Source: Squalus acanthias (Eukaryota). From it: a stretch of DNA of 64,000 nucleotides. The notes under the pieces are model-generated. The model was not told the origin of the DNA. It worked only from the letters and a program-made list of their open reading frames with translations, and searched no databases. A program made the translations under genes and the position numbers. The stretch's first letter is position 1, and each line of letters opens with the position of its first letter. Shown one piece after another: positions 1 through 64,000 of this stretch. Location of the stretch: assembly GCA_030390025.1 (NCBI GenBank), contig JASTWF010000157.1, positions 744,001-808,000 on the forward strand, in the 5' to 3' direction.

Positions 1-1160
1 ATTCAGTATAATTTCAGTGCATGAATTGTATTGAAACTAATGATCCCCACATTTTCCAGAGTGCTGTCTTCTGTATGTTTGGGAGCAGCGGAAACTAGCC
101 TGTTTTAAATCGTACACTTCCTGCTCTTCCCTCCTGTGAAGAAATCCTCCAGCATTTACTTTCAAGTGCCAATAGCACAAAATGCTGAAGGTTCACAGCT
201 AAGTTTAGACCTCTGTTTTTTGCCCTGTGTCTCATTGAACATCAGGAAGATAATCTGCTGTTAATGGAGAGACATCGAGCAGCCTCCAATATATAATGTA
301 TGTTCCTGTGCTTGGCAATTCCAGCAACAAAATTAGCACCTGTTCAAAATAGACTCTCTGAATTAGACAACTTTGCAACCACTGAGTATTTTCTGCCCTT
401 TCATCTGCTTCATTCACTCACAAATATCTGTGGTTTGTTGCGACATCCAACATCTCCATGTGTTCCTCTGGGCAGAAAAATGTTACTGGCTGTAGAAGGA
501 TGACAGCAGTTTCAGTCTCCCCCTGATTTTCTCTGTTTTGCTCATTTTTATATTTTGTTTTCATGGTCCCTCCGTACCTCACCCTTTTATCCAGTCTGTC
601 AGTCACCTTCTGTGTTGTGTTGACATCTCACATTTTCAAGCCTTGTTTGAGATGCAGATAAGTGTTGTTCTGGTGATTTTAATGGCAATCCACAGTATTG
701 TGTGCAATTTGAAGAGGGCCCTTATCATCACAGGTCAGATTAGAAACTTGCCTGGTGAGGACATCTGAGGGCTCACAACTCAAAAGGCACACTGCATGGT
801 CTCATATCATTGCTGACAATACAAGCGGGCGAATACTTATTGACCTCTTCGGACATTGTTCTGTCTGCATTTCTAAAGCAAGCACAAACTCAATCAAACG
901 AATTAACAGCAGCATTAAAATAGCAGATTTAAGAATGTTATATGAGATGATGAAATGTTTAGCTGCTAATATCATCAGTAGTAATTACCATGCCCAACGC
1001 CATTTCCTTGAGCTGTAACATTCTTAAATATTATCCATAGAGCCTTGTCCTTATTGCTTAAATGTCAATATATGAGACACAGTTGTCTCCATCTATAATT
1101 TCTGAATGAAGAATTGCTATTAGATGCCTAAATCCTCATTTCCATTGTGTTTGCTTACAG

Positions 1161-1379
1161 GGCAGGCTATCGTGAGTTCTGCAGGGAAATCAGGCTTCTG
1201 TAATTTCACACTATGTACCAAGAGTTGTGAAATTTTGAATTATACGGGAAAATGTGAAACCACCACAGCACCCACCACTACGCCCAGCACATCCGAATCT
1301 ACAACAGTAACAATGACTCCCACCTCCACAGCAACAACAACCTGCTCCTGCAATGTCGATGGACAAATAATGTCACCTG
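1161..1379 (+). CDS. Mucin repeat exon 1 (219 bp, phase 1/1; NYT variant, NVDG)
   Basis: ttgcttacag|GG...TCACCTG|gtaagt; 73 codons, open, 6 Cys plus a Thr-rich linker. Confidence 0.9.
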
Positions 1380-4300
1380 GTAAGTGTATCAGTTATTAAC
1401 AATCTGATGCAATCAAAGTCACACAAGAAACTTGGGAGCAATATCGAATATGAATCACAATTGACGACAATAATTGAATCAGTTCATTGAAGTGAAGCTC
1501 CAGCCCGTTCCATGACATAGAAACATAGAAACACAGAAAATAGGTGCAGGAGTAGACCATTCGGTCCTTCGAGCCTGCACCGCCATTTAATGCGTTCATG
1601 GCTGAACATGCTACCTCAGTACCCCATTCCTGCTTTCTCGCCATACCCCTTGATACCCCTAGTTGTGAGTATTATATCTAACTCCCTTTTGAATATATTT
1701 AGCGAACTAGCCTCAACAACCTTCTGTGGTAGAGAATTGCACAGATTCACCACTCTCTGGGTGAAGAAATTCCTCCTCATCTCAGTCTTAAATGGCTTCC
1801 CCTTTATCCTTAGACTGTGACCCCTGGTTTTAGTTTTCCCTGACATTGGAAACATTCTGCCCGCATCTAATTTGTCTAAACCAGTCAGGATTTTAAACGT
1901 CTCTATAAGATCCCCCCTCATTCTTCTGAACTCCAGAGGATACAAGTTCAGTTGATCCAGTCTTTCTTGATATGTCAGTCTGGACATCCCAGGAATCAAT
2001 CTAGTGAACCTTCGTTGCACTCCCTCAATAGCAAGAATGTCCTTCCTCAAGTTAGGAGACCAAAACTGCACACAATACTCCAGGTGTGGTCTCACCAAGG
2101 CCCTGTACAACTGTAGCATCACCTCCCTACTCCTGTACTCAAATCCCCTTGCTATGAAGGCCATCATGCCATTTGCTTTCTTGACTGCCTGCTGCACTTG
2201 CCTTCCCACCTTCAGTGACTGATGTACATGACGCCCAGGTCTCGTTGCACCTCCCCTTTCCCTAATCTGCCACCATTCAGGTAATAGTCTGCCTCCCTAT
2301 TTTTACCACCAAAGTGGATAACCTCACATTTATCCACATTGTACTTCATCTGCCATACATTTGCCCATTCACCCAACCTGTCCAAGTCACTCTGTAGCCT
2401 CCTAGCATCCTCCTCATTGTTCACACTGCCTCCCAATTTAGTGTCATCCGCAAATTTGGAGATATTACAATTAATCCCTTCGTGCAAATCATTAATATAT
2501 AATGTAAACAGCTGGGGCCCCAGCACCGAACCCTGCGGTACCCCGCTGGTCACTGCCTGCCATTCTGAAAAGTACCCATTTACTCCTACTCTTTGTTTCC
2601 TGTGTGCCAACCAGTTCTCAATCCACGTCAACACATTACCCCCAATCCCATGTGCTTTAACATTGCACACCAATCTCTTGTGTGGGACCTTGTCGAAGGC
2701 CTTCTGAAAGTCCAAATACACCACATCTACTGGTTCCCCCCCGTCCACCCTATTGGAAACATCCTCAAAAAATTCCAGAAGATTTGTCAAGCATGATTTC
2801 CCTTTCACAAATCCATGCTGACTTGGACCTATCATGTCGCCACTTTCCAAATGGTCTGTTGTGACATCTTTAATAATTGATTCCATCATTTTACCCACCA
2901 CCGATGTCAGGCTGACCGGTCTATAATTCCCTGCTTTCTCCCTCCCTCCTTTTTTAAAAAGAGGGGTTACATTAGCCACCCTCCACTCCTTCGGAACTGA
3001 TCCAGAGTCTAAGGAATGTTGGAAAATGATCGTCAATGCATCCACTATTTCCAAGGCCACCTCCTGAAGTACTCTGGGATGCAGACCATCAGGCCCTGGG
3101 GATTTATCAGCCTTCAGTCCCATCAATTTCCCCAACACCTTTTCCCGACTGATAAGGATTTCCCTCAGCTCCTCCCTCTTACCAGATCCTTTGATCTCTT
3201 TTATTTCCAGAAGGTTGTTTGTGTTCTCCACAGTAAACACTGAACCAAAGTACTTGTTCAATTGATCTGCCATTTCTTTGTTCCCCATTATGACTTCCCC
3301 TGTTTCTGACTGCAGGGGACCTACGTTTGTTTTTACTAACTTCTTTCTTTTTACATATTTATAGAAGCTTTTGCAGTCCGTTTTAATGTTCTCCGCAAGC
3401 TTCCTTTCATATTTTATTTTCCCTGCCCTAATCAAACCCTTCGTCCTCCTCTGCTGAGTTTTAAAGTTCTCCCAGTCCCCGGGTTTGCTGCTACTTCTGG
3501 CCAATTTGTATGCCACTTCCTTGCTTTTAATACTATCCCTGATTTCCCTTGTTAGCCATGGTTGAGCCACCTTCCCTTTTTTATTTTTACACCAGACAGG
3601 GATGTACAATTGCTGTAGTTCATCCATGCGATCTCTAAATGTCTGCCATTGCCCTTCCACTGATAACCCCTTAAATATCGCTTGCCAATCTAACCTCGCC
3701 AATTCACGCCTCATACCCTCAAAGTTGCCCTTATTTAAGTTCTGGACCATGGTCTCTGAATTAACTGTTTCCTTCTCCATCCTAATGTAGAACTCCACCA
3801 TACTATGGTCACTCTTCCCCAAGGGGCCTCGCACCACAAGATTGCTGATTAGTCCTTCCTCATTACACAACACCCAGTCCAGGATGGCCTCCCCTCTAGT
3901 TGGTTCCTCAACATATTGGTTTAGGAAACCATCCCTTAAACACTCCAGGAAATCCTCCTCCACCGTATTGCTTCCAGTTTGAGTAGCCCAATCTATATGC
4001 ATATTAAAGTCACCCATGATAACTGCTGCGCCTTTTTTGCATGCACCTCTGATTTCCTGTTTCATACCCTCCCCCACCTCACTACTACTGTTTGGAGGTC
4101 TGTACACAACCCCCACTAACGTTTTCTGCCCTTTGGTGTTCTGCAGCTCAACCCATATTGATTCCACATCCTCCAAGCTAATGTCCTTCCTAGCTATTGC
4201 ATTAATCTCCTTTTTAACCAGCAATGCTACCCCACCCCCTTTTCCTTTTATTCTATCCTTCCTGAATGTTGAATACCCCTGGATATTCAGTTCCCAGCCT

Positions 4301-7300
4301 TGATTGTTCTGGAGCCACGTCTCTGTAATCCCAATCACATCATATCCGTTAACATCAATTTGCACAGTCAATTCATCCACCTTATTACGGATACTCCTTG
4401 CATTAAGACACAGAGCCTTTAGGCTTGTTTTATTAACACCCTTTGTCCTTTTAGACTTATGATTTAGTATGGCCCTTTGTGTTTCTTGCCTTTGTTTACT
4501 TGGATTTCCCTTATTGTTTCTCACCCTTCTAACATTTGTTTCTGACTGCATATTACTTCCCCCTGTTTTGCTACATAGGTTCCCATTCCCCTGCCATATT
4601 AGTTTAAATCCTCCCGAACTGCCTTAGCAAATATTACCCCGAGGACATCGGTTCCAGTCCTGCCTAAGTGCAGACCGTCCCTTTTGTACAGGTCCCACTT
4701 CCCCCAGAACTGGTTCCAATGCCTCAGGTATTTGAATCCCTCCCTCCTGCACCACTGCTCAAGCCACGTATTTAATCTCGCTATCCTGTTCATGCTACTC
4801 TGATTAGCACGTGGCACTGGTAGCAACCCAGAGATTACTACCTTTGAGGTCCTACTTTTCAATTTAGCTCCTAGCTCCCTAAATTCTGCTTGTAGGACCT
4901 CTTCCCGCTTTTTACCTATATCGTTGGTACCTACATGCACCACGACAGCTGGCTCTTCACCCTCCCTTTCCAGAATGTTCTGCAGCCGCTCCGAGACATC
5001 CTTGACCCTTGCACCAGGGAGGCAACATACCATCCAGCAATCTCGGTTGCGGCCACAGAAACTCCTGTCTATTCCCCTTACAATTGAGTCCCCTATCACT
5101 ATAGCTCTACCACTCTTTTTCCCGCCCTGCTGTGCAGCAGAGCCAGCCATGGTGCCATGAACCTGGCTGCTGGTGCCTTCCCCTGGTAGGTCATTTCCCC
5201 CAACAGTATCCAAAACGGTATATCTGTTTTGGAGGGAGACGACCGCAGGGGACTCCTGCACTACCTTCCTGATATTGCCCTGCCTCTTGGTCACCCATTT
5301 ACTGTCTGACCTAGCCTTTACCCGTGGTGTGTTCAACTCACTAAATGAGTAATCCACAAAGTTCTCGGCATCGTGGATGCTCCAGAGTGAGTCCATCCGC
5401 AGCTCCAGTGTCGCCAAGCGGTCCGTCAGGAGCTGCAGCTGGACGCACTTCCTGCACACATAGTTGTCAGGGACACTGGAAGTGTCCCTGATTTCCCACA
5501 TAGCACAGGAGGAGCACGACACGGCTCCGAGATTTCCTGCCATGACTTAACCCTTATATTACGTAATTAAGTTAAGTCCCTGAAAACAAAATATAAATCG
5601 AACCTACCTTTTAAATTCCCTCTACCCCTAAAGGTTAGAGGAGGTGGGAGGGTGGGAGACACTACTAGTGTAGTGTCTCGGGCTTAGCAACAGCTCCACC
5701 TATATACGGGTACCAATGAATTGGCCCCACCCTCTGACTTTGCAAAAAGCCCACGAAGCTCCTTCCCCGCTGCCGACCGCTCTGTGGAAGAAAGAAAGGC
5801 TCCTCTTCCTCCGCCGCTGTCGACGCTGGTGTGAGGCCTACCTGAGCCTCGGGGCTCCCTTTATCTACTCGCCGCCGCTCCCGCCGCTCCAACCAGGTCA
5901 GCTCCTCCTTCCCCGCTGCCGACCGCTCTGTGGAAGAAAGAAAGGCTCCTCCTCCTCCGCCGCTGTCGACGCTGGTTTATATTAAGTGGATGTCTTTGTA
6001 AATCATTCAGTATAATTTCAAAGTATGAATTGTATTGAAACTAATGATCCCCACATTTTCCAGAGTGCTGTCTTCTATATGTTTGGGAGCAGCGGAAATT
6101 AGCCTGATTTAAATTGTGCACTTCCTTCTCTTCCGATCTCTGAAGAAATCCTCCAGCTTTTTCTTTCACATGACAATAGCACAAAATGCTGAAGGTTCAC
6201 AGCTAAGTTTTGACCTCTGCTTTTTGCCCTGTGTCTCATTGAACATCAGGAAGATAATCTGCTGTTAATGGAGCGACATCGAGCAGACTCCAATATATAA
6301 TGTATGTGCCTGTAAATGGCAATTCCAGCAAAAAAATTAGCACCTGTTCAAAATAGATTCTCTGAATTAGACAACTTTGCAACCACTGAGTATTTTCTGC
6401 GCTTTCATCTGCTTCATTCACTCACAAATATCTGTGGTTTGTTGCGACATCCAACATCTCCATGTGTTCCTCTGGGCAGAAAAATGTTACTGGCTGTAGA
6501 AGGATGACAGCAGTTTCAGTCTCCCCATGATTTTCTCTGTTTTGCTCATTTTTCGGTTTAGTGTTCATGGTCCCACCATACCTCACCCTTTTACCCAGTC
6601 TGTCAGTCACCTTCTGTGTTGTGTTGACATCTCACATTTTCAAGCATTGTTTGAGTTGCATATAAGTGTTGTTCTGGTGATTTTAATGGCAATCCACAAT
6701 ATTGTGTGCAATTTGAAGAGGGCCCTTATCATCACAGGTCAGATTAGAAACTTGCCTGGTGAGGACATCTGAGGGCACACAACTCAAAAGGAACACTGCA
6801 TGGTCTCATATCATTGCTGACAATACAAGCGGGCGAATACTTATTGACCTGTTCGGACATTGTTCTGTCTCCATTTCTAAAGCAAGCACAAAGCCAATCA
6901 AATAATTAACAGCAGCATTAAAATAGCAGATTTAAGAATGTTATATGAGATGATGAAACATTTAGCTGCTAATATCATCAGTAGTAATTTCCATGCCCAA
7001 TGCCATTTCCTTGAGGTGTAACATTCTTAAATATTAACCATAGAGCCTTGTTCTTATTGCTTAAATGTCAATATATGAGACACAGTTGTCGACATCTGTA
7101 ATTTCTGAATGAAGAATTGCGATTAGATGCCTAAATCCTCATTTCCATTGTGTTTGCTTACAGGGCAGGCTATCGTGAGTTCTGCAGGGAAATCAGGCTT
7201 CTGTAATTTCACACTATGTACTAAGAGTTGTGAAATTTTGAATTATACGGGAAAATGTGAAACCACCACAGCGCCCACCACTACGCCCAGCACATCCGAA

Positions 7301-10300
7301 TCTACAACAGTAACAATGACTCCCACCTCCACAGCAACTACAACCTGCTCCTGCAATGTCGATGGACAAATAATGTCACCTGGTAAGTGTATCAGTTATT
7401 AACAATCTGATGCAATCAAAGTCACACAAGAAACTTGGGAGCAATATCTAATATAAATCACAATTGACGACAATAATTGAATCAGTTCATTGAAGTGAAG
7501 CTCCAGCCCGTTCCATGACATAGTTTATATTAAGTGGATGTCTTTGTAAATCATTCAGTATAATTTCAGTGCATGAATTGTATTGAAACTAATGATCCCC
7601 ACATTTTCCAGAGTGCTGTCTTCTGTATGTTTCAGAGCAGCGGCAACTAGCCTGTTTTAAATCGTACACTTCCTGCTCTTCCCTCCTGTGAAGAAATCCT
7701 CCAGCATTTACTTTCACGTGCCAATAGTTCAAAATGCTGAAGGTTCACAGCTAAGTTTTGACCTCTGCTTTTTGCCCTGTGTCTCATTGAACATCAGGAA
7801 GATAATCTGCTGTTAATGGAGGGACATCGAGCAGACTCCGAAAGGTCTTCGACCTGAAACGTTAACTCTGTTTCTCTCTCCATGGATGCTGCCTCGCCTG
7901 CTGAGTTTTTCCAGTGTTTTCTGTTGTGATTTCCAATATATAATGTATGTTCCTGTACTTTGCCATTCCAGCAAAAAAATTAGCACCTGTTCAAAATAGA
8001 TTCTCTGAATTAGACAACTTTGCAACCACTGAGTATTTTCTGCCCTTTCATCTGCTTCATTCACTCACAGATATCTGTGGTTTGTTGCGACATCCAACAT
8101 CTCCATGTGTTCCTCTGGGCAGAAAAATGTTACTGGCTGTAGAAGGATGACAGCAGTTTCAGTCTCCCCCTGATTTTCTCTGTTTTGCTCATTTTTATAT
8201 TTTGTTTTCATGGTCCCTCCGTACCTCACCCTTTTACCCAGTCTGTCAGTCACCTTCTGTGTTGTGTTGACATCTCACATTTTCAAGCCTTGTTTGAGAT
8301 GCAGATAAGTGTTGTTCTGGTGATTTTAATGGCAATCCACAGTATTGTGTGCAATTTGAAAGGGCCCTTATCATCACAGGTCAGATTAGAAACTTGCCTG
8401 GTGAGGACATCTGAGGGCACGCAACTCAAAAGGAACACTGCATGGTCTCATATCATTGCTGACAATACAAGCGGGCGAATACTTATTGACCTCTTCGGAC
8501 ATTGTTCTGTCTGCATTTCTAAAGCAAGCACAAACCCAATCAAACGAATTAACAGCAGCATTAAAATAGCAGATTTAAGAATGTTATATGAGATGATGAA
8601 ACGTGTAGCTCCTAATATCGTCAGTAGTAATTTCCATGCCCAATGCCATTTCCTTGAGGTGTAACATTCTTAAATATTAACCATAGAGCCTTGTTCTTAT
8701 TGCTTCAATGTCAATATATGAGACACAGTTGTCTCCATCTATAATTTCTGAATGAAGAATTGCGATTAGATGCCTAATTCCTCATTTCCATTGCGTTTGC
8801 TTACAGGGCAGGCTATCGTGAGTTCTGCAGGGAAATCAGGCTTCTGTAATTTCACACTATGTACTAAGAGTTGTGAAATTTTGAAGTATACGGGAAAATG
8901 CGTAACCACCACAGCACCCACCACTACGCCCAGCACATCCGAATCTACAACAGTAACAATGACTCCCACCTCCACAGCAACTACAACCTGCTCCTGCAAT
9001 GTCAATGGACAAATAATGTCACCTGGTAAGTGTATCAGTTATTGACAATCTGATGCAATCAAAGTCACACAAGAAACTTGGGAGCAATATCTAATATAAA
9101 TCACAATTGACGACAATAATTGAATCATTTCATTGAAGTGAAGCTCCAGCCCGTTCCATGACATAGTTTATATTAAGTGGATGTCTTTGTAAATCATTCA
9201 GTATAATTTCAGAGTATGAATTGTATTGAAACTAATGATCCTCACATTTTCCAGAGTGCTGTCTTCTATATGTTTGGGAGCAGCGGAAACTAGCCTGTTT
9301 TAAATCGTACACTTCCTGCTCTTCCCATCTGTGAAGAAATCCTCAGCATTTACTTTCACATGCCAATAGCACAAAATGCTGAAGGTTTACACCTAAGATT
9401 AGACCTCTGTTTTTTGCCCTGTGTCTCATTGAACATCAGGAAGATAATCTGCTGTTAATGGAGAGACATCGAGCAGACTCCAATATATAATGTATGTTCC
9501 TGTACTTGGCAATTCCAGCAACAAAATTAGCACCTGTTCAAAATAGACTCTCTGAATTAGACAACTTTGCAACCACTGAGTATTTTCAGCCCTTTCATCT
9601 GCTTCATTCACTCGCAAATATCTGTGGTTTGTTGCGACATCCAACATCTCCATGTGTTCCTCTGGGCAGAAAAATGTTACTGGCTGTAGAAGGATGACAG
9701 CAGTTTCAGTCTCCCCCTGATTTTCTCTGTTTTGCTCATTTTTCGGTTTTGTTTTCATGGTCCCACCATACCTCACTCTTTTACCCAGTCTGTCAGTCAC
9801 TTTCTGTGTTGTGTTGACATCTCACATTTTCAAGCATTGTTTAAGAGGCATATAAAGTGTTGTTCTGGTGATTTTAATGGTAATCCACAGTATTGTGTGC
9901 AATTTGAAGAGGGCCCTTATCATCAGAGGTCAGATTAGAAACTTGCCTGCTGAGGACATTTGAGGGCTCACAACTCAAAAGGCAGACTGCATGGTCTCAT
10001 ATCATTGCTGACAATACAAGCGGGCGAATACTTATTGACCTGTTCGGACATTGTTCTGTCTCCATTTCTAAAGCAAGCACAAAGCCAATCAAATAATTAA
10101 CAGCAGCATTAAAATAGCAGATTTAAGAATGTTATATGAGATGATGAAACGTTTAGCTGCTAATATCGTCAGTAGTAATTTCCATGCCCAATGCCATTTC
10201 CTTGAGGTGTAACATTCTTAAATATTAACCATAGAGCCTTGTTCTTATTGCTTAAATGTCAATATATGAGACACAGTTGTCGACATCTGTAATTTCTGAA

Positions 10301-52300: not shown

Positions 52301-55300
52301 TTAACAATCTGATGCAATCAAAGTCACACAAGAAACTTTGGAGCAATATCGAATATGAATCACAATTGACGACAATAATTGAATCAGTTCATTGAAGTGA
52401 AGCTCCAGCCCGTTCCATTACATAGTTTATATTAAGTGATTGTCTTTGTAAATCTTTCAGTATAATTTCAGAGTATGAATTGTATTGAAACTAATGATCC
52501 CCACATTTTCCAGAGTGCTGTCTTCTATATATTTGGGAGCAGCGGAAACTAGCCTGTTTTAAATCGTACACTTCCTGCTCTTCCCATCTGTGAAGAAATC
52601 CTCAGCATTTACTTTCACATGCCAATAGCACAAAATGCTGAAGGTTTACACCTAAGTTTTGACCTCTGTTTTTTGCCCTGTGTCTCATTGATCATCAGGA
52701 AGATAATCTGCTGTTAATGGAGAGACATCGAGCAGCCTCCAATATATAATGTATGTGCCTGTACTTGGCAATTACAGTAAAAAAATTAGCGCCCGTTCAA
52801 AATAGACTCTCTGAATTAGACAACTTTGAAACCACTGAGTATTTTCTGCGCTTTCATCTGCTTCATTCACTCACAGATATCTGTGGTTTGTTGCGACATC
52901 CAACATCTCCATGTGTTCCTCTGGGCAGAAAAATGTTACTGGCTGTAGAAGGATGACAGCAGTTTCAGTCTCCCCCTGATTTTCTCTGTTTTGCTCATTT
53001 TTCGGTTTTGTTTTCATGGTCCCACCGTACCTCACCCTTTTACCCAATCTGTCAGTCACTTTCTGTGTTGTGTTGACATCTCACATTTTCAAGCTTTGTT
53101 TAAGAGGCATATAAGTGTTGTTCTGGTGATTTTAATGGCAATCCACAGTATTGTGTGCAATTTGAAGAGGGCCCTTATCATCAGAGGTCAGATTAGAAAC
53201 TTGCCTGGTGAGGACATCTCAGGGCTCACAACTCAAAAGGCACACTGCATGGTCTCATATCATTGCTGACAATACAAGCGGGCGAATACTTATTGACCTC
53301 TTCGGACATTGTTCTGTCTGCATTTCTATAGCAAGCACAAACCCAATCAAACGAATTAACAGCAGCATTAAAATAGCAGATTTAAGAATGTTATATGAGA
53401 TGATGAAACATGTAGCTCCTAATATCGTCAGTAGTAATTTCCATGCCCAATGCCATTTCCTTGAGGTGTAACATTCTTAAATATTAACCATAGAGCCTTG
53501 TTCTTATTGCTTAAATGTCAATATATGAGTCACAGTTGTCGACATCTGTAATTTCTGAATAAAGCATTGCGATTAGATGCCTAAATCCTCATTTCCATTG
53601 TGTTTGCTTGCAGGGCAGGCTATCGTGAGTTCTGCAGGGAAATCAGGCTTCTGTAATTTCACACTATGTACTAAGAGTTGTGAAATTTTGAATTATACGG
53701 GAAAATGTGAAACCACCACAGTACCCACCACTACGCCCAGCACATCTGAATCTACAACAGTAACAATGACTCCCACCTCCACAGCAACAACAACCTGCTC
53801 CTGCAATGTCAATGGACAAATAATGTCACCTGGTAAGTGTATCAGTTATTAACAATCTGATGCAATCAAAGTCACACAAGAAACTTTGGAGCAATATCGA
53901 ATATGAATCACAATTGACGACAATAATTGAATCAGTTCATTGAAGTGAAGCTCCAGCCCGTTCCATTACATAGTTTATATTAAGTGGTTGTCTTTGTAAA
54001 TCTTTCAGTATATTTTCAGAGTATGAATTGTATTGAAACTAATGATCCCCACATTTTCCAGAGTGCTGTCTTCTATATATTTGGGAGCAGCGGAAACTAG
54101 CCTGTTTTAAATCGTACACTTCCTGCTCTTCCCATCTGTGAAGAAATCCTCAGCATTTACTTTCACGTGCCAATAGTTCAAAATGCTGAAGGTTCACAGC
54201 TAAGTTTTGACCTCTGCTTTTTGCCCTGTGTCTCATTGAACATCAGGAAGATAATCTGCTGTTAATGGAGGGACATCGAGCAGACTCCGAAAGGTCTTCG
54301 ACCTGAAACGTTAACTCTGTTTCTCTCTCCACGGATGCTGCCTCGCCTGCTGAGTTTTTCCAGCGTTTTCTGTTGTTATTTCCAATATATAATGTATGTT
54401 CCTGTACTTTGCGATTCCAGCAAAAAAATTAGCACCTGTTCAAAATAGATTCTCTGAATTAGACAACTTTGCAACCACTGAGTATTTTCTGCGCTTTCAT
54501 CTGCTTCATTCACTCACAAATATCTGTGGTTTGTTGCGACATCCAACATCTCCATGTGTTCCTCTGGGCAGAAAAAATGTTACTGGCTGTAGAAGGATGA
54601 CAGCAGTTTCAGTCTCCCCCTGATTTTCTCTGTTTTGCTCATTATTAGGTTTTGTGTTCATGGTCCCTCCGTACCTCACCCTTTTACCCAGTCTGTCAGT
54701 CACCTTCTGTGTTGTGTTGACATCTCACATTTTCAAGCATTGTTTGAGATGCAGATAAGTGTTGTTCTGGTGATTTTAATGGCAATCCGCAGTATTGTGT
54801 GCAATTTGAAGAGGGCCCTTATCATCACAGGTCAGATTAGAAACTTGCCTGGTGAGGACATCTGAGGTCACACAACTCAAAAGGAACACTGCATGGTCTC
54901 ATATCATTGCTGACAATACAAGCGGGCGAATACTTATTGATCTCTTCGGACATTGTTTTGTCTGCATTTCTAAAGCAAGCACAAACCCGATCAAACGAAT
55001 TAACAGCAGCATTAAAATAGCAGATTTAAGAATGTTATATGAGATGATGAAACGTTTAGCTGCTAATATCGTCAGTAGTAATTTCCATGCAAAAATGCCA
55101 TTTCCTTCAGGTGTAACATTCTTAAATATTAACCATAGAGCCTTGTTCTTATTGCTTAAATGTCAATATATGAGACACAGTTGTCTACATCTATAATTTC
55201 TGAATGAAGAATTGCTATTAGATGCCTAATTCCTCATTTCCATTGCGTTTGCTTACAGGGCAGGCTATCGTGAGTTCTGCAGGGAAATCAGGCTTCTGTA

Positions 55301-58300
55301 ATTTCACACTATGTACTAAGAGTTGTGAAATTTTGAATTATACGGGAAAATGCGTAACCACCACAGCACCCACCACTACGCCCAGCACATCCGAATCTAC
55401 AACAGTAACAATGACTCCCACCTCCACAGCAACTACAACCTGCTCCTGCAATGTCAATGGACAAATAATGTCACCTGGTAAGTGTATCAGTTATTGACAA
55501 TCTGATGCAATCAAAGTCACACAAGAAACTTGGGAGCAATATCTAATATGAATCACAATTGACGACAATAATTGAATCAGTTCATTGAAGTGAAGCTCCA
55601 GCCCGTTCCATGACATGTTTATATGAAGTGGATGTCTTTGTAAATCATTCAGTATAATTTCAGAGTATGAATTGTATTGAAACTAATGATCCCCACATTT
55701 TCCAGTGTCGTGTCTTCTGTTTGTTTGGGAGCAGCGGAAATTAGCCTGATTTAAATTGTGCACTTCCTGCTCTTCCGATCTGTGAAGAAATCCTCCAGCT
55801 TTTTCTTTCACATGACAATAGCACAAAATGCTGAAGGTTCACAGCTAAGTTTTGACCTCTGCTTTTTGTCCTGTGTCTCATTGAACATCAGCAAGGTAAT
55901 CTGCTGTTAATGGAGAGACATCGAGCAGACTCCAATATATAATGTATGTTCCTGTACTTGGCAATTCCAGCAACAAAATTAGCACCTGTTCAAAATAGAC
56001 TCTCTGAATTAGACAACTTTGCAACCACTTGAGTATTTTCTGCGCTTTCATCTGCTTCATTCACTCACAAATGTCTGTGGTTTGTTGCGACATCCAACAT
56101 CTCCATGTGTTCCTCTGGGCAGAAAAAATGTTACTGGCTGTAGAAGGATGACAGCAGTTTCAGTCTCCCCCTGATTTTCTCTGTTATCCTCATTTTTCGG
56201 TTTTGTTTTCATGGTCCCACCATACCTCACTCTTTTACCCAGTCTGTCAGTCACTTTCTGTGTTGTGTTGACATCTCACATTTTCAAGCATTGTTTAAGA
56301 GGCATATAAAGTGTTGTTCTGGTGATTTTAATGGTAATCCACAGTATTGTGTGCAATTTGAAGAGGGCCCTTATCATCAGAGGTCAGATTAGAAACTTGC
56401 CTGGTGAGGACATCTGAGGGCTCACAACTCAAAAGGCACACTGCATGGTCTCATATCATTGCCGACAATACAAGCGGGCGAATACTTATTGACCTCTTCG
56501 GACATTGTTCTGTCTGCATTTCTAAAGCAAGCACAAACCCAATCAAACGAATTAACAGCAGCATTAAAATAGCAGATTTATTAATGTTATATGAGATGAT
56601 GAAACGTTTAGCTGCTAATATCGTCAGTAGTAATTTCCATGCCCAATGCCATTTCCTTCAGGTGTAACATTCTTAAATATTAACCATAGAGCCTTGTTCT
56701 TATTGCTTAAATGTCAATATATGAGACACAGTTGTCGACATCTGTAATTTCTGAATAAAGAATTGCGATTAGATGCCTAAATCCTCATTTCCATTGTGTT
56801 TGCTTACAGGGCAGGCTATCGTGAGTTCTGCAGGGAAATCAGGCTTCTGTAATTTCACACTATGTACTAAGAGTTGTGAAATTTTGAATTATACGGGAAA
56901 ATGTGAAACCACCACAGCACCCACCACTACGCCCAGCACATCCGAATCTACAACAGTAACAATGACTCCCACCTCCACAGCAACAACAACCTGCTCCTGC
57001 AATGTCAATGGACAAATAATGTCACCTGGTAAGTGTATCAGTTATTAACAATCTGATGCAATCAAAGTCACACAAGAAACTTGGGAGCAATATCTAATAT
57101 AAATCACAATTGACGACAATAATTGAATCAGTTCATTGAAGTGAAGCTCCAGCCCGTTCCATGACATAGTTTATATTAAGTGGATGTCTTTGTAAATCAT
57201 TTAGTATAATTTCAGAGTATGAATTGTATTGAAACTAATGATCCCCACATTTTCCAGAGTGCTGTCTTCTGTATGTTTGGGAGCAGCGGAAACTAGCCTG
57301 TTTTAAATCGTACACTTCCTGCTCTTCCCTCCTGTGAAGAAATCCTCCAGCATTTACTTTCACGTGCCAATAGCTCAAAATGCTGAAGGTTCACAGCTAA
57401 GTTTTGACCTCTGCTTTTTGCCCTGTGTCTCATTGAACATCAGGAAGATAATCTGCTGTTAATGGAGGGACATCGAGCAGACTCCAATATATAATGTATG
57501 TTCCTGTACTTTGCGATTCCAGCAAAAAAATTAGCACCTGTTCAAAATAGATTCTCTGAATTAGACAACTTTGCAACCACTGAGTATTTTCTGCCCTTTC
57601 ATCTGCTTCATTCACTCACAGATATCTGTGGTTTGTTGCGACATCCAACATCTCCATGTGTTCCTCTGGGCAGAAAAATGTTACTGGCTGTAGAAGGATG
57701 ACAGCAGTTTCAGTCTCCCCCTGATTCTCTCTGTTTTGCTCATTTTTCGGTTTTGTTTTCATGGTCCCTCCGTACCTCACCCTTTTACCCAGTCTGTCAG
57801 TCACCTTCTGTGTTGTGTTGACATCTCACATTTTCAAGCATTGTTTAAGAGGCATATAAGTGTTGTTCTGGTGATTTTAATGGTAATCCACAGTATTGTG
57901 TGCAATTTGAAGAGGGCCCTTATCATCAGAGGTCAGATTAGAAACTTGCCTGGTGAGGACATCTGAGGGCTCACAACTCAAAAGGCACACTGCATGGTCT
58001 CATATCATTGCTGACAATACAAGCGGGCGAATACTTATTGACTTCTTCGGACATTGTTCTGTCTGCATTTCTAAAGCAAGCACAAGCCCGATCAAACGAA
58101 TTAACAGCAGCATTCCCATGGCCCAGAAATTGCAGTGTGAGGGTTCGTGCGAGGGTAAGCCCTTCCCGCGATGTCTCACTGCGCGTTGGCTTTTTCAGTC
58201 CCAGCTCGCTGGAACTTCATGTTCCAGGCATCAGCTGCGAGTGCATCGTGATCCCACAGTGCGAAGTTAGTTCGAGCGTACTGTGGGATCACGTGACTGA

Positions 58301-61300
58301 GTTACAGCCAATGGCAGCACACCAAGCTCTCATTCATAGAATTCACAGCGGCCATTGAACTGCTGTGAAAACTAGGAATACAACAAGCCCCCAAAAGAAG
58401 AGCTAAACCTCCATTAAATTAAAAAAAAAACCCATCACATAATTAAAATAAGTGTAATTAAATAAATTAACCTTTTTAAACAAAAAAATAAATTTTTGAA
58501 AATTTTTTAAATCTTTTAAAATGTTATAAAAATAAACTTACCTGTCTTTAAAGTCGCTACTAAAGATTTACCTGTAAAAAAAAATTCTAAATACTACTTA
58601 ATTATGTACTTACCTGGTTAAAAGAGTCTCCTGCGCTTCCTTTTTTCTTTTCCAGATTCTTCAATACTTACCTGCGTGCGCAAGCGATGAAGTGCACCGC
58701 GTGCGCGCAGCCTGTAGCGCGCACGCGGTGCACTGAGGACCCGCCCCCTTTTCGAAAGATCAATTGCCGGTTTTCAGTGCATGCGCAGTGCATGCTGAAA
58801 ACCGGCAATTGAAGTCTGGCTGCGTGAGTGTACACTGTGCGTACTCTCGCGCAGCCGGATCAATTTCTGGGCCATTATAGCAGATTTAAGAATGTTATAT
58901 GAGAGGATGAAACATTTAGCTGCTAATATCATCAGTAGTAATTTCCATGCCCAATGCCATTTCCTTGAGGTGTAACATTCTTAAATATTAACCATAGAGC
59001 CTTGTTCTTATTGCTTAAATGTCAATATATGAGACACAGTTGTCTACATCTGTAATTTCTGAATGAAGAATTGCGATTAGATGCCTAAATCCTCATTTCC
59101 ATTGTGTTTGCTTGCAGGGCAGGCTATCGTGAGTTCTGCAGGGAAATCAGGCTTCTGTAATTTCACACTATGTACTAAGAGTTGTGAAATTTTGAATTAT
59201 ACGGGAAAATGTGAAACCACCACAGCGCCCACCACTACGCCCAGCACATCCGAATCTACAACAGTAACAATGACTCCCACCTCCACAGCAACAACAACCT
59301 GCTCCTGCAATGTCGATGGACAAATAATGTCACCTGGTAAGTGTATCAGTTATAAACAATCTGATGCAATTAAAGTCACACAAGAAACTTGGGAGCAATA
59401 TCTAATATAAATCACAATTGACGACAATAATTGAATCAGTTCATTGAAGTGAAGCTCCAGCCCGTTCCATGACATAGTTTATATTAAGTGGATGTCTTTG
59501 TAAATCATTCAGTATAATTTCAGAGTATGAATTGTATTGAAACTAATGATCCCCACATTTTCCAGAGTGCTGTCTTCTGTATGTTTGGGAGCAGCGGAAA
59601 CTAGCCTGTTTTAAATCGTACACTTCCTGCTCTTCCCTCCTGTGAAGAAATCCTCCAGCATTTACTTTCACGTGCCAATAGCACAAAATGCTGAAGGTTC
59701 ACAGCTAAGTTTTGACCTCTGCTTTTTGCCCTGTGTCTCATTGAACATCAGGAAGATAATCTGCTGTTAATGGAGGGACATCGAGCAGCCTCCAATATAT
59801 AATGTTTGTGCCTGTACTTGGCAATTACAGTAAAAAAATTAGCACCCGTTCAAAATAGACTCTCTGAATTAGACAACTTTGCAACCACTGAGTATTTTCT
59901 GCCCTTTCATCTGCTTCATTCACTCGCAAATATCTGTGGTTTGTTGCGACATCCAACATCTCCATGTGTTCCTCTGGGCAGAAAAATGTTACTGGCTGTA
60001 GAAGGATGACAGCAGTTTCAGTCTCCCCCTGATTTTCTCTGTTTTGCTCATTTTTAGGTTTTGTTTTCATGGTCCCTCCGTACCTCACCCTTTTACCCAG
60101 TCTGTCAGTCACCTTCTGTGTTGTGTTGACATCTCACTTTTTCAAGCATTGTTTAAGAGGCAGATAAGTGTTGTTCTGGTGATTTTAATGGCAATCCACA
60201 GTATTGTGTGCAATTTGAAGAGGGCCCTTATCATCTCAGGTCAGATTAGAAACTTGCCTGGTGAGGACATCTGAGGGCTCACAACTCATATCATTGCTGA
60301 CAATACAAGCGGGCGAATACTTATTGACCTCTTCGGACATTGTTCTGTCTGCATTTCTAAAGCAAGCACAAACCCAATCAAACGAATTAACAGCAGCATT
60401 AAAATAGCAGATTTAAGAATGTTACATAAGATGATGAAACGTTTAGCTGCTAATATCGTCAGTAGTAATTTCCATGCCCAACGCCATTTCCTTGAGGTGT
60501 AACATTCTTAAATATTAACCATAGAGCCTTGTTCTTATTGCCTAAATGTCAATATATGAGACACAGTTGTCTACATCTATAATTTCTGAATGAAGAATTT
60601 CTATTAGATGCCTAATTCCTCATTTCCATTGCGTTTGCTTACAGGGCAGGCTATCGTGAGTTCTGTAGGGAAATCAGGCTTCTGTAATTTCACACTATGT
60701 ACTAAGAGTTGTGAAATTTTCAAGAATACGGGAAAATGTGAAACCACCACAGCGCCCACCACTACGCCCAGCACATCCGAATCTACAACAGTAACAATGA
60801 CTCCCACCTCCACAGCAACAACAACCTGCTTCTGCAATGTCAATGGACAAATAATTTCACCTGGTAAGTGTATCAGATATTAAAAGCCTCCAGTTATGTT
60901 CTCACCAATTTGGGTTCGGGATAAGCAGGTTTGTTAATGTATAAATAATAAATAGGAGAGTCAGAGCTTTGAAGTGCCCTCGCTAGTTTTCCACCTTTTG
61001 AAATCTGCCTCTTTTGAACATTTAACTCCTCAAGCCAAGACTGGTGCATCAACAAATTAACTTGTAATTAATGTGGATCTGTTTTCTGTTCATGGATTTT
61101 TTTATTGTTGTCGTTTTTATTTTTATCTCTTCTTTACATTCCACACCCCACCATCATCACTCACTCACCCAGGAAGGCAGTCTGTTTCGCTCCGCCCAGA
61201 CTTGTGTACTTATTTTCTGACATGCTGACATCTAGGATAGGTCCAAGAGTTGCCCCAATAACTGAACTGCCAATCTTCTCTCTCTTCTCACGTTGGAAAG

Positions 61301-61684
61301 AGAAGCAGTTCACAGACAGTACAGGTGAGATTTGCAACTTGCTCTGTGTGAAATTCTTGGCACAAACCTGCAATCAAAACTCCCATGATGCAACAAGTAA
61401 AATGCAATAATGACAGTGTACCCTTTAACTGAATAGTGAATTAATGTAACCAGTCAAAACTTGCCACTTATGATTTCCATTTGCATTTCTTTACAGGGCA
61501 GATAGTATACAATTCCACAGACAAAGCAGGCTGGTGTTTTTATGCATTATGTTCTAAGAACTGTAAAATTGTGAAGCATGTGGAGCCATGTGAAAGCACC
61601 ACATCATCTCTACCAACCACACAGACATCCAAACCAACAACAGCACCACCAGAAGGTTGCTCAGCCCTGCATCCTCCAAGAGCT
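1161..61684 (+). CDS. Partial multi-exon gene: gel-forming mucin of the MUC2/MUC5AC/MUC5B family (32 exons in the window; the gene extends beyond it)
   Basis: The exon 31/32 splice gives TCFCNVNGQIISPG|QIVYNSTDKAGWCFYALCSKNCKIVKHVEPCESTT...EGCSALHPPRA. From memory, this matches the cysteine spacing and motifs that precede the D4 assembly in MUC5AC/MUC5B/MUC2 (CxC...PG..IY...D.AG.C.YA.C...C, short PTS, then GC....PPR). All exons have canonical AG and GT splice sites. Orthology cannot be fixed from this window. Confidence 0.85.
1616..4551 (-). pseudogene. CR1 ORF2 (APE endonuclease plus reverse transcriptase) with a 1-bp frameshift near 2227
   Basis: NARSI, ITETW, GDFN, SDH, YLDFQKAFD, GVPQGSVLGP and FADD motifs. 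Restoring one G in ATG(G)TACATCAG joins the two ORF pieces as DLGVMVHQSLKVGRQVQ. Confidence 0.92.
4599..5543 (-). CDS. CR1 ORF1p: zinc finger, leucine zipper and SGNH esterase domain
   Basis: CSSC...CRKC, then the GDSIVR, HVGTND and DGLHL motifs; 314 aa, open. Confidence 0.9.
   Translation of the reverse strand: MAGNLGAVSCSSCAMWEIRDTSSVPDNYVCRKCVQLQLLTDRLATLELRMDSLWSIHDAENFVDYSFSELNTPRVKARSDSKWVTKRQGNIRKVVQESPAVVSLQNRYTVLDTVGGNDLPGEGTSSQVHGTMAGSAAQQGGKKSGRAIVIGDSIVRGIDRSFCGRNRDCWMVCCLPGARVKDVSERLQNILEREGEEPAVVVHVGTNDIGKKREEVLQAEFRELGAKLKSRTSKVVISGLLPVPRANQSSMNRIARLNTWLEQWCRREGFKYLRHWNQFWGKWDLYKRDGLHLGRTGTDVLGVIFAKAVREDLN
5761..5975 (-). repeat. GC/CpG-rich direct repeat in the CR1 5' UTR (about 70 bp repeated, 146-bp period); also at 49114-49328
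   Basis: ccttccccgctgccgaccgctctgtggaagaaagaaaggctcc...cgacgctggt starts at both 5761 and 5907. Confidence 0.85.
7164..7382 (+). CDS. Mucin repeat exon 2 (NYT, NVDG)
   Basis: cag|...|gtaagt, 219 bp, open frame. Confidence 0.9.
7840..7934 (+). mobile_element. 95-bp Penelope 3'-end fragment with a truncated hammerhead
   Basis: Matches the reverse complement of about 17875-17967; absent from short units; tcc is present on both sides. Confidence 0.85.
8807..9025 (+). CDS. Mucin repeat exon 3 (KYT, KCV)
   Basis: cag|...|gtaagt, 219 bp, open frame. Confidence 0.9.
10355..10573 (+). CDS. Mucin repeat exon 4 (NYT)
   Basis: cag|...|gtaagt, 219 bp, open frame. Confidence 0.9.
11031..11125 (+). mobile_element. 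95-bp Penelope 3'-end fragment (stem II mutated)
   Basis: gaaaggacttcgacatgaaacgtt... Confidence 0.85.
11999..12217 (+). CDS. Mucin repeat exon 5 (KYT, KCV)
   Basis: cag|...|gtaagt, 219 bp, open frame. Confidence 0.9.
13548..13766 (+). CDS. Mucin repeat exon 6 (NYT, TLP/ITP; A-like type)
   Basis: cag|...|gtaagt, 219 bp, open frame. Confidence 0.9.
14224..14318 (+). mobile_element. 95-bp Penelope 3'-end fragment
   Basis: Same insert at the same intron site. Confidence 0.85.
15192..15410 (+). CDS. Mucin repeat exon 7 (KYT; type B)
   Basis: cag|...|gtaagt, 219 bp, open frame. Confidence 0.9.
16742..16960 (+). CDS. Mucin repeat exon 8 (NYTGNCV; type C)
   Basis: cag|...|gtaagt, 219 bp, open frame. 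Confidence 0.9.
17940..17976 (-). ncRNA. Minimal type I hammerhead ribozyme in the Penelope 3' region
   Basis: The minus strand reads AGUU CUGAUGA A AGGUC AUC GACCU GAAAC GUC AACU. This gives a 4-bp stem I, the conserved core, a 5-bp stem II, a palindromic ACGU in place of stem III and a GUC cleavage triplet. Confidence 0.8.
18254..20183 (-). CDS. Penelope RT plus GIY-YIG endonuclease ORF (5'-truncated, no internal stops)
   Basis: KPADKG, LPKIHK, RPIVS, MDVQSLYT, GVAMG and RYIDD motifs; Cys linker CTRRRCNTC; NLVYCIRC..C.LLYIGET, RFAEH and GLN. Confidence 0.9.
20609..20827 (+). CDS. Mucin repeat exon 9 (NYT, TVP/ITP; type A)
   Basis: cag|...|gtaagt, 219 bp, open frame. Confidence 0.9.
21285..21379 (+). 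mobile_element. 95-bp Penelope 3'-end fragment
   Basis: Same insert at the same intron site. Confidence 0.85.
22253..22471 (+). CDS. Mucin repeat exon 10 (type B)
   Basis: cag|...|gtaagt, 219 bp, open frame. Confidence 0.9.
23802..24020 (+). CDS. Mucin repeat exon 11 (type C)
   Basis: cag|...|gtaagt, 219 bp, open frame. Confidence 0.9.
25352..25570 (+). CDS. Mucin repeat exon 12 (NYT; type D)
   Basis: cag|...|gtaagt, 219 bp, open frame. Confidence 0.9.
26028..26121 (+). mobile_element. Penelope 3'-end fragment (about 94 bp)
   Basis: Same insert with a slightly altered 3' end. Confidence 0.85.
26996..27214 (+). CDS. Mucin repeat exon 13 (KYT, KCV, TTMP; type E)
   Basis: cag|...|gtaagt, 219 bp, open frame. 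Confidence 0.9.
28544..28762 (+). CDS. Mucin repeat exon 14 (type A)
   Basis: cag|...|gtaagt, 219 bp, open frame. Confidence 0.9.
29220..29314 (+). mobile_element. 95-bp Penelope 3'-end fragment
   Basis: Same insert at the same intron site. Confidence 0.85.
30188..30406 (+). CDS. Mucin repeat exon 15 (type B)
   Basis: cag|...|gtaagt, 219 bp, open frame. Confidence 0.9.
31737..31955 (+). CDS. Mucin repeat exon 16 (type C)
   Basis: cag|...|gtaagt, 219 bp, open frame. Confidence 0.9.
33288..33506 (+). CDS. Mucin repeat exon 17 (type D)
   Basis: cag|...|gtaagt, 219 bp, open frame. Confidence 0.9.
33964..34058 (+). mobile_element. 95-bp Penelope 3'-end fragment
   Basis: Same insert at the same intron site. 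Confidence 0.85.
34933..35151 (+). CDS. Mucin repeat exon 18 (type E)
   Basis: cag|...|gtaagt, 219 bp, open frame. Confidence 0.9.
36482..36700 (+). CDS. Mucin repeat exon 19 (type A)
   Basis: cag|...|gtaagt, 219 bp, open frame. Confidence 0.9.
37158..37252 (+). mobile_element. 95-bp Penelope 3'-end fragment
   Basis: Same insert at the same intron site. Confidence 0.85.
38126..38344 (+). CDS. Mucin repeat exon 20 (type B)
   Basis: cag|...|gtaagt, 219 bp, open frame. Confidence 0.9.
39675..39893 (+). CDS. Mucin repeat exon 21 (type C)
   Basis: cag|...|gtaagt, 219 bp, open frame. Confidence 0.9.
41226..41444 (+). CDS. Mucin repeat exon 22 (KYT, IMTP; weakened acceptor)
   Basis: tttaataacag|...|gtaagt, 219 bp, open frame. 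Confidence 0.85.
41902..41996 (+). mobile_element. 95-bp Penelope 3'-end fragment (GAAA changed to GTAA)
   Basis: Same insert at the same intron site. Confidence 0.85.
42871..43089 (+). CDS. Mucin repeat exon 23 (KYTGNCV)
   Basis: cag|...|gtaagt, 219 bp, open frame. Confidence 0.9.
43546..43640 (+). mobile_element. 95-bp Penelope 3'-end fragment
   Basis: Same insert at the same intron site. Confidence 0.85.
44514..44732 (+). CDS. Mucin repeat exon 24 (same type as exon 1)
   Basis: cag|...|gtaagt, 219 bp; shares the tgtacc and gtcgat variants with exon 1. Confidence 0.9.
44969..47904 (-). pseudogene. CR1 ORF2, copy 2; frameshift near 45580 and endonuclease GDFN changed to GEFN
   Basis: Same motifs and same 1-bp deletion as copy 1. 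Confidence 0.92.
47952..48896 (-). CDS. CR1 ORF1p, copy 2
   Basis: 314 aa; differs from copy 1 at PDNY/PNNY. Confidence 0.9.
   Translation of the reverse strand: MAGNLGAVSCSSCAMWEIRDTSSVPNNYVCRKCVQLQLLTDRLATLELRMDSLWSIHDAENFVDYSFSELNTPRVKARSDSKWVTKRQGNIRKVVQESPAVVSLQNRYTVLDTVGGNDLPGEGTSSQVHGTMAGSAAQQGGKKSGRAIVIGDSIVRGIDRSFCGRNRDCWMVCCLPGARVKDVSERLQNILEREGEEPAVVVHVGTNDIGKKREEVLQAEFRELGAKLKSRTSKVVISGLLPVPRANQSSMNRIARLNTWLEQWCRREGFKYLRHWNQFWGKWDLYKRDGLHLGRTGTDVLGVIFAKAVREDLN
50518..50736 (+). CDS. Mucin repeat exon 25 (DILKYT)
   Basis: cag|...|gtaagt, 219 bp, open frame. Confidence 0.9.
52066..52284 (+). CDS. Mucin repeat exon 26 (KYT)
   Basis: cag|...|gtaagt, 219 bp, open frame. Confidence 0.9.
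53614..53832 (+). CDS. Mucin repeat exon 27 (NYT, TVP)
   Basis: gcttgcag|...|gtaagt, 219 bp, open frame. Confidence 0.9.
54289..54383 (+). mobile_element. 95-bp Penelope 3'-end fragment
   Basis: Same insert; ends ctgttgttattt like the large Penelope copy. Confidence 0.85.
55259..55477 (+). CDS. Mucin repeat exon 28 (NYT, KCV)
   Basis: cag|...|gtaagt, 219 bp, open frame. Confidence 0.9.
56810..57028 (+). CDS. Mucin repeat exon 29 (NYT)
   Basis: cag|...|gtaagt, 219 bp, open frame. Confidence 0.9.
58115..58876. mobile_element. Non-autonomous DNA transposon (MITE-like); superfamily uncertain, possibly PIF/Harbinger
   Basis: Terminal inverted repeats ATGGCCCAGAAATTG (58118-58132) and CAATTTCTGGGCCAT (58861-58875). 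GC-rich hairpin arms flank an AT-rich core, there is no transposase ORF, and it is absent from all other units. Confidence 0.8.
59118..59336 (+). CDS. Mucin repeat exon 30 (NYT, NVDG)
   Basis: gcttgcag|...|gtaagt, 219 bp, open frame. Confidence 0.9.
60645..60863 (+). CDS. Mucin repeat exon 31 (terminal, most divergent: SSVG, IFKNT, CFC, IISP)
   Basis: cag|...|gtaagt, 219 bp, open frame. Confidence 0.9.
61497..61684 (+). CDS. Unique mucin exon 32 (phase 1 to 0): second half of the Cys module, short PTS, GCSALHPPRA
   Basis: ttgcatttctttacag|GGCAGATAG...CCAAGAGCT|gtgagt; 188 bp; peptide QIVYNSTDKAGWCFYALCSKNCKIVKHVEPC... Confidence 0.88.
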
Positions 61685-63880: not shown

Positions 63881-64000
63881 AGAGAAAGGTGACAAGAGAG
63901 TGCTAGTTCCAACTATCACTGGACAGGAGAGTGCCAATATTCCCAGATTATCTTGGCATGCAAAGATAACTCCTGCTTCTCTTCTCCACTACAACCATCT

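Follow-up and report, generated by a model that had tools for sequence, protein, structure and literature searches.

Tandemly repeated six-cysteine modules in a probable gel-forming mucin gene of Squalus acanthias

The central regions of gel-forming mucins are usually treated as stretches with a high content of proline, threonine, and serine (PTS) combined with CysD domains. This work describes a 64,000-nt stretch of the Squalus acanthias genome, referred to here as the window (assembly GCA_030390025.1, contig JASTWF010000157.1, positions 744,001 to 808,000 of the forward strand), in which a six-cysteine module of 44 amino acids (aa), called the bead below, is encoded by a tandem array of at least 31 short exons. 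The locus represents a long-lived alternative to the usual plan in sharks and a skate. Window numbering is used throughout, position 1 being the first letter of the stretch.

Beaded central regions without CysD have been described in frogs. The central domain of Xenopus MucXS/Otogl consists of 39 cysteine-rich and 34 PTS repeats, is multi-exonic, and lacks CysD; it was confirmed by long-read cDNA and mass spectrometry, and a CysD-like role was proposed by its authors (PMC5789918). The cysteines of Xenopus PTS repeats have also been suggested to organize chain interactions like CysD (cited in PMC2515642). According to the available portion of a wider survey, CysD is present in only 11 of 26 frog mucins and missing from 15 of 26, being otherwise the rule in mammals, birds, and reptiles; the same portion lists elephant shark mucins without an array of the present kind (PMC4948705). 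The 69-aa repeat of chicken MUC2 is given as cysteine-free (PMC3549977), and identity with the shark bead was rejected on that ground. Mucin-2-like and 5B-like proteins are reported from shark skin mucus, without architectural detail in the part of the source available (PMC10707392).

A literature search, mainly of open papers and with the supplements of PMC4948705 and PMC10082768 aside, gave no description of the elasmobranch array and no name for the domain among the top-ranked entries. The architecture is a variant of mucin design that has been little described; it is not a new type of protein. The sequences are already in RefSeq and the design principle has been published for frogs. The domain itself appears to be unnamed; what we did not find in print is the elasmobranch-wide amplification, the fold, and the exon mechanism.

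The exon array and its gene

A six-frame scan of the window recovered the cysteine motif 31 times, on the + strand. With exon 1 as the query, BLASTN located 32 matches in the window, of which one spurious 28-nt match was discarded, leaving 31 full-length 219-nt exons on the + strand between positions 1161 and 60863. Each is 95.9 to 100% identical to exon 1, and all 31 carry an AG acceptor, a GTAAGTGT donor, and phase 1 at both ends. A scripted join of these exons yields 6789 nt, or 2263 codons, with no stops, no tryptophan, and 186 cysteines. BLASTN and the join thus agree with the preliminary description of this DNA, which had given 31 intact repeat exons and a spliced length of 2263 aa. When the terminal exon (61497 to 61684; different from the repeat exons, phase 1-0) is added, the product contains 31 complete 44-aa modules of six cysteines each and 30 linkers of 29 aa, in line with the alternating 44-aa modules and 29-aa linkers of that description. 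Proline, threonine, and serine account for 23 residues in 28 of the 30 linkers, for 22 in the remaining 2, and for 44% of the whole array. The 31 repeat exons fall into 19 different DNA sequences and 14 different protein sequences, with a mean pairwise difference of 2.0% and zero amino-acid changes at cysteine codons. Because bases 1 to 1160 match the 3' part of a repeat intron, the array extends past the 5' edge of the window, and 31 modules is only a lower bound. We infer that the repeat exons are spliced to each other from their splice signals and from the RefSeq models of relatives.

A search for related proteins with the exon found a Heptranchias perlo (sevengill shark) model (P0001; 1 match among 740 candidates) whose 19 complete modules recur every 74 aa. 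A search with the Heptranchias module found full-length models from Leucoraja erinacea (little skate; P0002), with 23 modules, and Carcharodon carcharias (white shark; P0003), with 11 (2 matches among 4 candidates). All three are RefSeq "mucin-2-like" models. Module identity is 85 to 99% within species and 70 to 89% between the window and the others. The terminal exon of the window is 71% identical to P0003 residues 2818 to 2879 and 59% identical to P0002 residues 3177 to 3235, which bears out the earlier proposal that the repeated module corresponds to the one just upstream of VWCN-D4.

Both full-length proteins have the order D1-D2-D'D3-E3, long plain PTS stretch, array, terminal module, VWCN, D4, and VWC domains. 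Pfam detects VWD, C8, TIL, and VWC in each: the VWD-C8-TIL assembly occurs three times in the N-terminal part, and a fourth VWD follows the PTS region. The C terminus is visibly cysteine-rich, and the Pfam knot family was not reported there at E<=0.01. These models indicate an overall elasmobranch plan of D1-D2-D'D3-E3, long PTS stretch, array, VWCN, D4, VWC domains, and a putative C-terminal knot. Mucin2_WxxW, the Pfam family of CysD, is absent from P0002, P0003, P0005, P0006, and P0007; together with the lack of tryptophan in the array, this upholds the earlier statement that CysD is missing, just as relatives with D1-D3, PTS, and VWCN-D4 uphold assignment to the gel-forming mucins. The window almost certainly encodes a gel-forming mucin of elasmobranchs, namely the C-terminal part of its central region. 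The D1-D3 region of P0003 scores 1578 bits against MUC5AC, 1567 against MUC5B, and 1396 against MUC2, and we lean toward a gene nearer the Muc5 type than Muc2.

Because the array is common to sharks and a skate, it would be older than the shark-batoid split, which dates to about 250 to 300 million years ago. The preliminary attribution of the architecture to "this lineage" is too narrow in view of this distribution. Downstream of the array, the terminal exon and the start of VWCN were found. When two parts of the orthologues, VWCN-D4-knot and D1-D3, served as tblastn queries, the matches listed comprised only repeat and terminal exons. No further mucin exons were seen in the last 2.3 kb of the window, which is mostly satellite.

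The bead and its relatives in other mucins

The bead has the spacing C-x-C-x22-C-x4-C-x3-C-x8-C over 44 aa. Of the 31 modules, 14 carry a single N-glycosylation sequon and 17 carry two. Pfam searches with the exon and the bead gave no family, with no fn1 or VWC match and only sub-threshold Crisp matches; an ESM Atlas search with the bead gave no usable match, and a PDB search with the whole repetitive P0001 gave one chance row only. An AlphaFold2 model of the Heptranchias bead (mean predicted local distance difference test score, 88.3) shows a beta-hairpin and a three-stranded antiparallel sheet, with strands at residues 5-7, 10-12, 17-22, 27-33, and 39-45. In VIA-align, the top 8 rows are all chains containing fibronectin type I (FnI) modules (the finger of tissue plasminogen activator [tPA], fibronectin, and factor XII); the best match is the tPA finger (Z 6.0; root mean square deviation, 2.7; 47 residues), and the rows that follow are FCGBP, VWF C4, MUC2 D3, and other VWC domains. 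Foldseek places VWF D'D3, fibronectin FnI, and MUC2 chains at the top, none of them significant. In addition, the first 18 to 19 profile columns resemble mucin E modules (pairwise hhalign, 90 to 94%). The bead is accordingly modeled as a predicted five-stranded FnI/VWE-like domain.

FnI modules have a disulfide connectivity that would correspond to core pairs 2-4 and 3-6 of the bead. In a hand-picked alignment of 34 rows, Cys1 and Cys5 are both present in 27 and both missing in 6, and Cys1 alone is present in 1; since 33 of the 34 rows have either both residues or neither, the alignment suggests an extra 1-5 bond on the FnI core. Since the cysteine count is even and the monomer fold is predicted confidently, we infer that all six cysteines pair inside each bead.

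The distribution of the module was surveyed with a five-sequence profile against 1.84 billion representatives (E<=0.001; 55 proteins) and with a frog-centred search (11 matches among 29 candidates). We examined 64 of 65 proteins, one possibly human match being excluded from all counts and trees; many of the family matches have no species name, and the taxa given for them are our own assignments. Tandem modules occur in 25 of the 64. Nine of these belong to the elasmobranch type, 3 of them named, and 8 to the frog type, including 6 named Xenopus proteins; the other 8 have modules with four cysteines. Separated copies occur in 16, typically a five-cysteine copy after E3 and a six-cysteine copy before VWCN; 20 proteins have a single copy and 3 have none. 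The module had been called normally single-copy, a description that these 16 proteins contradict, as does human MUC5AC, whose N-terminal constructs are matched by the module profile (E=1.5e-13) immediately behind E3. Within its own bounds this post-E3 copy has five cysteines, an odd number, and P0005 to P0007 contain a full, MUC5AC-like version of it. Human MUC2 N-terminal constructs gave no profile match at E<=10, which leaves a post-E3 copy unsupported for human MUC2. For human mucins, the evidence of a copy before D4 consists of unnamed vertebrate matches, with no PDB construct matched there. In the accessible parts of the MUC5AC structure papers, the region after TIL3 is not resolved (PMC11912381, PMC11933400), and a MUC2 review, in the portion available, gives no domain before VWCN (PMC11207715). 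A small domain with neither a Pfam family nor a solved structure thereby lies beside the PTS region in ordinary mucins, among them human MUC5AC.

A CysD motif is found in none of the 25 tandem-module proteins, versus 14 of the 16 with separated copies (13 by motif and P0028 by Pfam). The 4939 aa of P0028 include 9 VWD, 9 C8, 2 CysD, and 4 module copies, and its D4 assembly is apparently tandemly repeated, which could be real or a fusion in the gene model. The tandem four-cysteine modules with PTS linkers are those of P0015, P0026, P0029, P0032, P0037, P0053, P0063, and P0065. No VWD or confident Pfam family was found among those scanned, and two of the eight have signal-peptide-like N termini. 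An ESM Atlas search with one of them gave a single weak lead (0.77) to a Pacifastin/VWC-like cluster. They apparently form an unnamed family, for which an invertebrate origin is our guess.

The frog proteins offer a parallel. X. tropicalis F6RMB8 and XP_017948876.1 ("intestinal mucin-like") contain tandem six-cysteine modules with PTS-rich linkers of 13 to 18 aa that run into VWCN-D4. X. laevis LOC121402946 belongs to the tandem-module set, and other Xenopus fragments are annotated as "kielin/chordin-like" or uncharacterized. P0059 and P0064 are tandem-module fragments from Xenopus labeled "kielin/chordin-like protein," probably a misannotation owing to the VWC-like fold. The Xenopus tandem modules are probably identical with the PTS repeats containing cysteine that were noted by Lang et al. 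2007. Shark and frog module profiles align by hhalign at 97% (E, 5.5e-11). In a 48-column tree, the elasmobranch repeats form one clade (100/100) and the frog repeats another, fully supported; in a D4 tree, the frog genes stand beside a single-copy protein, apart from the elasmobranch genes. These trees suggest that the array was probably amplified separately in frogs. The preliminary description had noted that its novelty would fall if other fish and amphibian mucins carried the same tandem module. To a degree they do, given the tandem copies with PTS linkers in X. tropicalis and X. laevis, two running into VWCN-D4, and the published frog mucin beaded with a different module (PMC5789918).

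Proposed origin and function of the array

The exon anatomy provides a clear route for repeated domain amplification. A phase-1 intron splits the pre-VWCN module after residue 12, and because of this cut each exon consists of a C-terminal part, a linker, and an N-terminal part and is symmetric. Unequal crossing-over between flanking PTS sequences would duplicate the segment made up of N-terminal part, intron, and C-terminal part, yielding a symmetric 1-1 exon that could be copied without frameshift; further unequal exchange would then keep copies and introns near-identical within a species. The process would have started before the shark-batoid split, with probably a separate event in frogs. 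We consider this route very likely. Gene models of frog type (P0058 and P0059) and shark type (P0001, P0004, and P0011) break at the same point, and the central exons of human MUC5AC and MUC5B are described as ending in a 12-aa non-PTS piece whose sequence is not printed (PMC9712336), which fits the same intron. Any mucin with the intramodule intron could amplify likewise, which would explain the frog parallel.

The repeated unit, exon plus intron, measures about 1.55 or 1.64 kb. The 26 uninterrupted introns differ by a mean of 3.8% pairwise, and units form higher-order blocks (e.g., 6-8, 9-11, 14-15, and 19-20 are nearly identical by position); units 9 and 19 have 0 differences at aligned positions. 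This pattern reflects recent, repeated unequal exchange. Two copies of a long interspersed nuclear element (LINE) lie 43 kb apart at the same intron site, the element having been duplicated together with its repeat unit in a very recent long-range copy. A Penelope-like insertion is very young, because near-identical neighboring units lack it. Segregating sites across 30 units are rarer in exons (17/219) than in introns (213/1329; Fisher p=0.001).

Taken as a whole, the reading we favor, and judge on balance probable, is that of an elasmobranch gel-forming mucin enlarged by the intron route, with intramolecularly bonded beads serving as contact points. Its functional component, that the beads are weak multivalent noncovalent contacts between chains that replace CysD, is tentative and falls just short of what we would call probable. 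Once in every 73 residues, a bead would interrupt the stiff glycan brush as a compact patch bearing N-glycans but no O-glycans and would act as a chain contact, as CysD does in tetrapod mucins; with their disulfides intramolecular, the beads would not be covalent cross-linkers. This function is preferred because dimer contacts in the MUC2 C terminus are made by the VWC N-leaf, which is structurally related to the bead (PMC10082768), and because no CysD motif was found in the tandem-module proteins.

Several results weigh against this reading. The CysD exclusion involves few independent lineages, and most of the tandem proteins are fragments; moreover, P0012 and P0035 are long mucins with both flanking copies and neither CysD motifs nor array, and they indicate that CysD can be absent without replacement by the bead. 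The N-glycans, one or two on each bead, could cover the surfaces needed for contact. The fold evidence is modest, as Foldseek returned nothing at E<=0.001 and all Z-scores are <8, a range that the tool calls common. Zero exon indels occur in the array, which alone is not significant (P=0.12), and the ratio of nonsynonymous to synonymous changes (N/S) within it, 0.61, is not significantly <1 (p=0.18). With regard to separate amplification, a forced grouping of frog and elasmobranch D4 is rejected only at the borderline (approximately unbiased test, p=0.0498), and concerted evolution alone would group repeats by lineage. The higher MUC5 score may reflect faster evolution of mammalian MUC2, and the RefSeq name is mucin-2-like. 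Finally, the evidence on the array comes from genomic DNA and database protein models.

Among the alternatives, it is possible, if unlikely, that the beads are passive length filler: the symmetric exon would simply be the easiest to amplify, selection would act on glycosylated length, and beads would be kept to avoid misfolding, with no binding. The duplication route works without any bead function, copy number varies widely (11, 19+, 23, and 31+), N/S is not significantly low, and introns are homogenized as strongly as exons (3.8% versus 2.0%). However, the non-cysteine positions of the bead show no variation in the window or in six further proteins of elasmobranch type, most comparisons find the bead better conserved than the linker, and a long plain PTS stretch already lies beside the array in two full-length orthologues, so that beads are unneeded as filler. 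An improbable reading is that microbes or other mucus proteins attach to the beads by an exposed FnI-type edge strand, so that the beads serve as decoys or binding sites. FnI modules do bind bacterial adhesins in a tandem beta-zipper mode, the bead fold is predicted to be FnI-like, and one Foldseek row is an FnI pair with a Staphylococcus adhesin fragment (3cal); but FnI modules are adjacent, whereas the beads stand 29 glycosylated residues apart, the bead sequence is conserved across species and not diversifying, and a common fold does not show function.

More doubtful still is covalent cross-linking, in which inter-chain disulfides, or exchange after secretion, would tighten the mucus mesh. 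The 186 cysteines in 31 exons, the odd cysteine number of the post-E3 copy, and an extra inter-chain disulfide reported for the neighboring MUC2 VWCN domain (PMC10082768) are in its favor, but every one of the 31 beads has an even six cysteines, Cys1 and Cys5 are gained or lost together, and the monomer is predicted confidently as a compact domain. We regard an assembly artifact, or unspliced pseudo-exons, as hardly credible: although some units are identical or nearly so (9 versus 19, with 0 aligned differences) and exon joining is read from genomic splice signals and relatives' models, there are 19 distinct exon sequences, transposon insertions specific to units, intact splice sites in 31 of 31 exons, and the same array in three named species. 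The exact copy number may nevertheless be wrong or polymorphic.

If the bead self-associates, as the contact-point proposal holds, mucus would have contact points of a second kind, and engineered mucins could use the bead as a compact part. A more sweeping synthesis, which we offer as speculation that probably does not hold in full, would have the 44-aa module be an unnamed, autonomous, self-associating FnI-like domain that brackets the PTS region of vertebrate mucins, human included, was amplified in elasmobranchs and, independently, in frogs by way of one and the same symmetric exon, replacing CysD there as the noncovalent cross-linker of mucus, and persists in a four-cysteine form in tandem PTS proteins of probably invertebrate animals. 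Were this so, nature would have supplied a high-valency version in the shark array, and the function of the human orphan domain would be directly testable.

Other features of the window and comparison with known systems

Positions of the array and of the other annotated features are collected in Table 1. A 32-bp satellite (43.6 copies at 92% identity, 62491 to 63881) lies in the intron after the terminal exon and produces long open frames that are probably noncoding. These + strand satellite frames and a 200-aa frame at 51401 to 52003 were considered as genes and found to have no credible support. An Rfam scan of the window gave 0 matches.

Table 1. Features of the 64,000-nt window
Feature	Positions	Strand	Basis or remarks
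3' part of another repeat intron	1..1160	+	~96.5% match to reference repeat intron
Repeat-exon array, 31 x 219 nt, phase 1-1	1161..60863	+	Motif scan, BLASTN, scripted splice; each exon holds module C-terminal part, then 29-aa PTS linker, then next module's first 12 residues
Repeat exons 1-10, starts (end = start+218)	1161, 7164, 8807, 10355, 11999, 13548, 15192, 16742, 20609, 22253	+	
Repeat exons 11-20, starts (end = start+218)	23802, 25352, 26996, 28544, 30188, 31737, 33288, 34933, 36482, 38126	+	
Repeat exons 21-31, starts (end = start+218)	39675, 41226, 42871, 44514, 50518, 52066, 53614, 55259, 56810, 59118, 60645	+	
30 repeat introns	1380..60644	+	26 of 1.31-1.43 kb in two main length classes, 4 lengthened by insertions
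LINE; esterase-type (GDSL-esterase) open reading frame 1, endonuclease and reverse transcriptase open reading frame 2 in two frames	1521..5974	-	In repeat intron 1
Penelope-like retroelement, 657-codon open frame	17878..20183	-	In repeat intron 8; reverse transcriptase and GIY-YIG matches weak, below Pfam curated cutoffs
Second LINE copy	44874..49327	-	Same site in repeat intron 24; 16 differences in 4454 nt versus first copy
Insertion resembling a miniature inverted-repeat transposable element; terminal inverted repeats of 15 nt (perfect) and, between them, three hairpins of 17-18 nt	58118..58875	.	In repeat intron 29
Terminal intron, same codon position within module	60864..61496	+	Repeat-intron likeness only ~20-25 nt at each end
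Terminal single exon (phase 1-0); canonical pre-VWCN module C-terminal part, short PTS, VWCN start	61497..61684	+	Identity to P0003 and P0002 (see text)

Compared with known domains, the bead is unlike CysD (Mucin2_WxxW; ~100 aa, 10 cysteines, WxxW), having 44 aa, 6 cysteines, and no tryptophan. It shares its predicted hairpin and three-stranded sheet with FnI, VWE, and the VWC N-leaf, from which it differs by one extra cysteine pair and by standing alone between PTS linkers. At the level of whole proteins, human MUC5AC, MUC5B, and MUC2 have D assemblies homologous to those of the shark orthologue, and MUC5AC has the five-cysteine module copy after E3; their central region, unlike the shark array, is one giant exon with CysD domains.

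MucXS/Otogl resembles the shark array in being gel-forming, multi-exonic, and beaded, with no CysD. It has its own bead with a CCxxxxC consensus, which the shark bead lacks, and no D4 assembly is described for it; identity of the two beads was rejected on the basis of this consensus in the MucXS supplement sequence. The Xenopus tandem-module mucins have a homologous six-cysteine module, PTS linkers, a position ahead of VWCN-D4 in two models, and the same break in gene models, but their beads are 2 to 3 aa longer, their linkers measure 13 to 19 aa, and their repeats and D4 domains fall into separate clades. Although the C. carcharias, L. erinacea, and H. perlo models have fewer copies than the window (11, 23, and 19, respectively) and were annotated automatically, with no name given to the bead, they share with it the same bead (73 to 89% identical consensus), the same place before VWCN-D4, PTS linkers of 27 to 30 aa, and a central region free of CysD.

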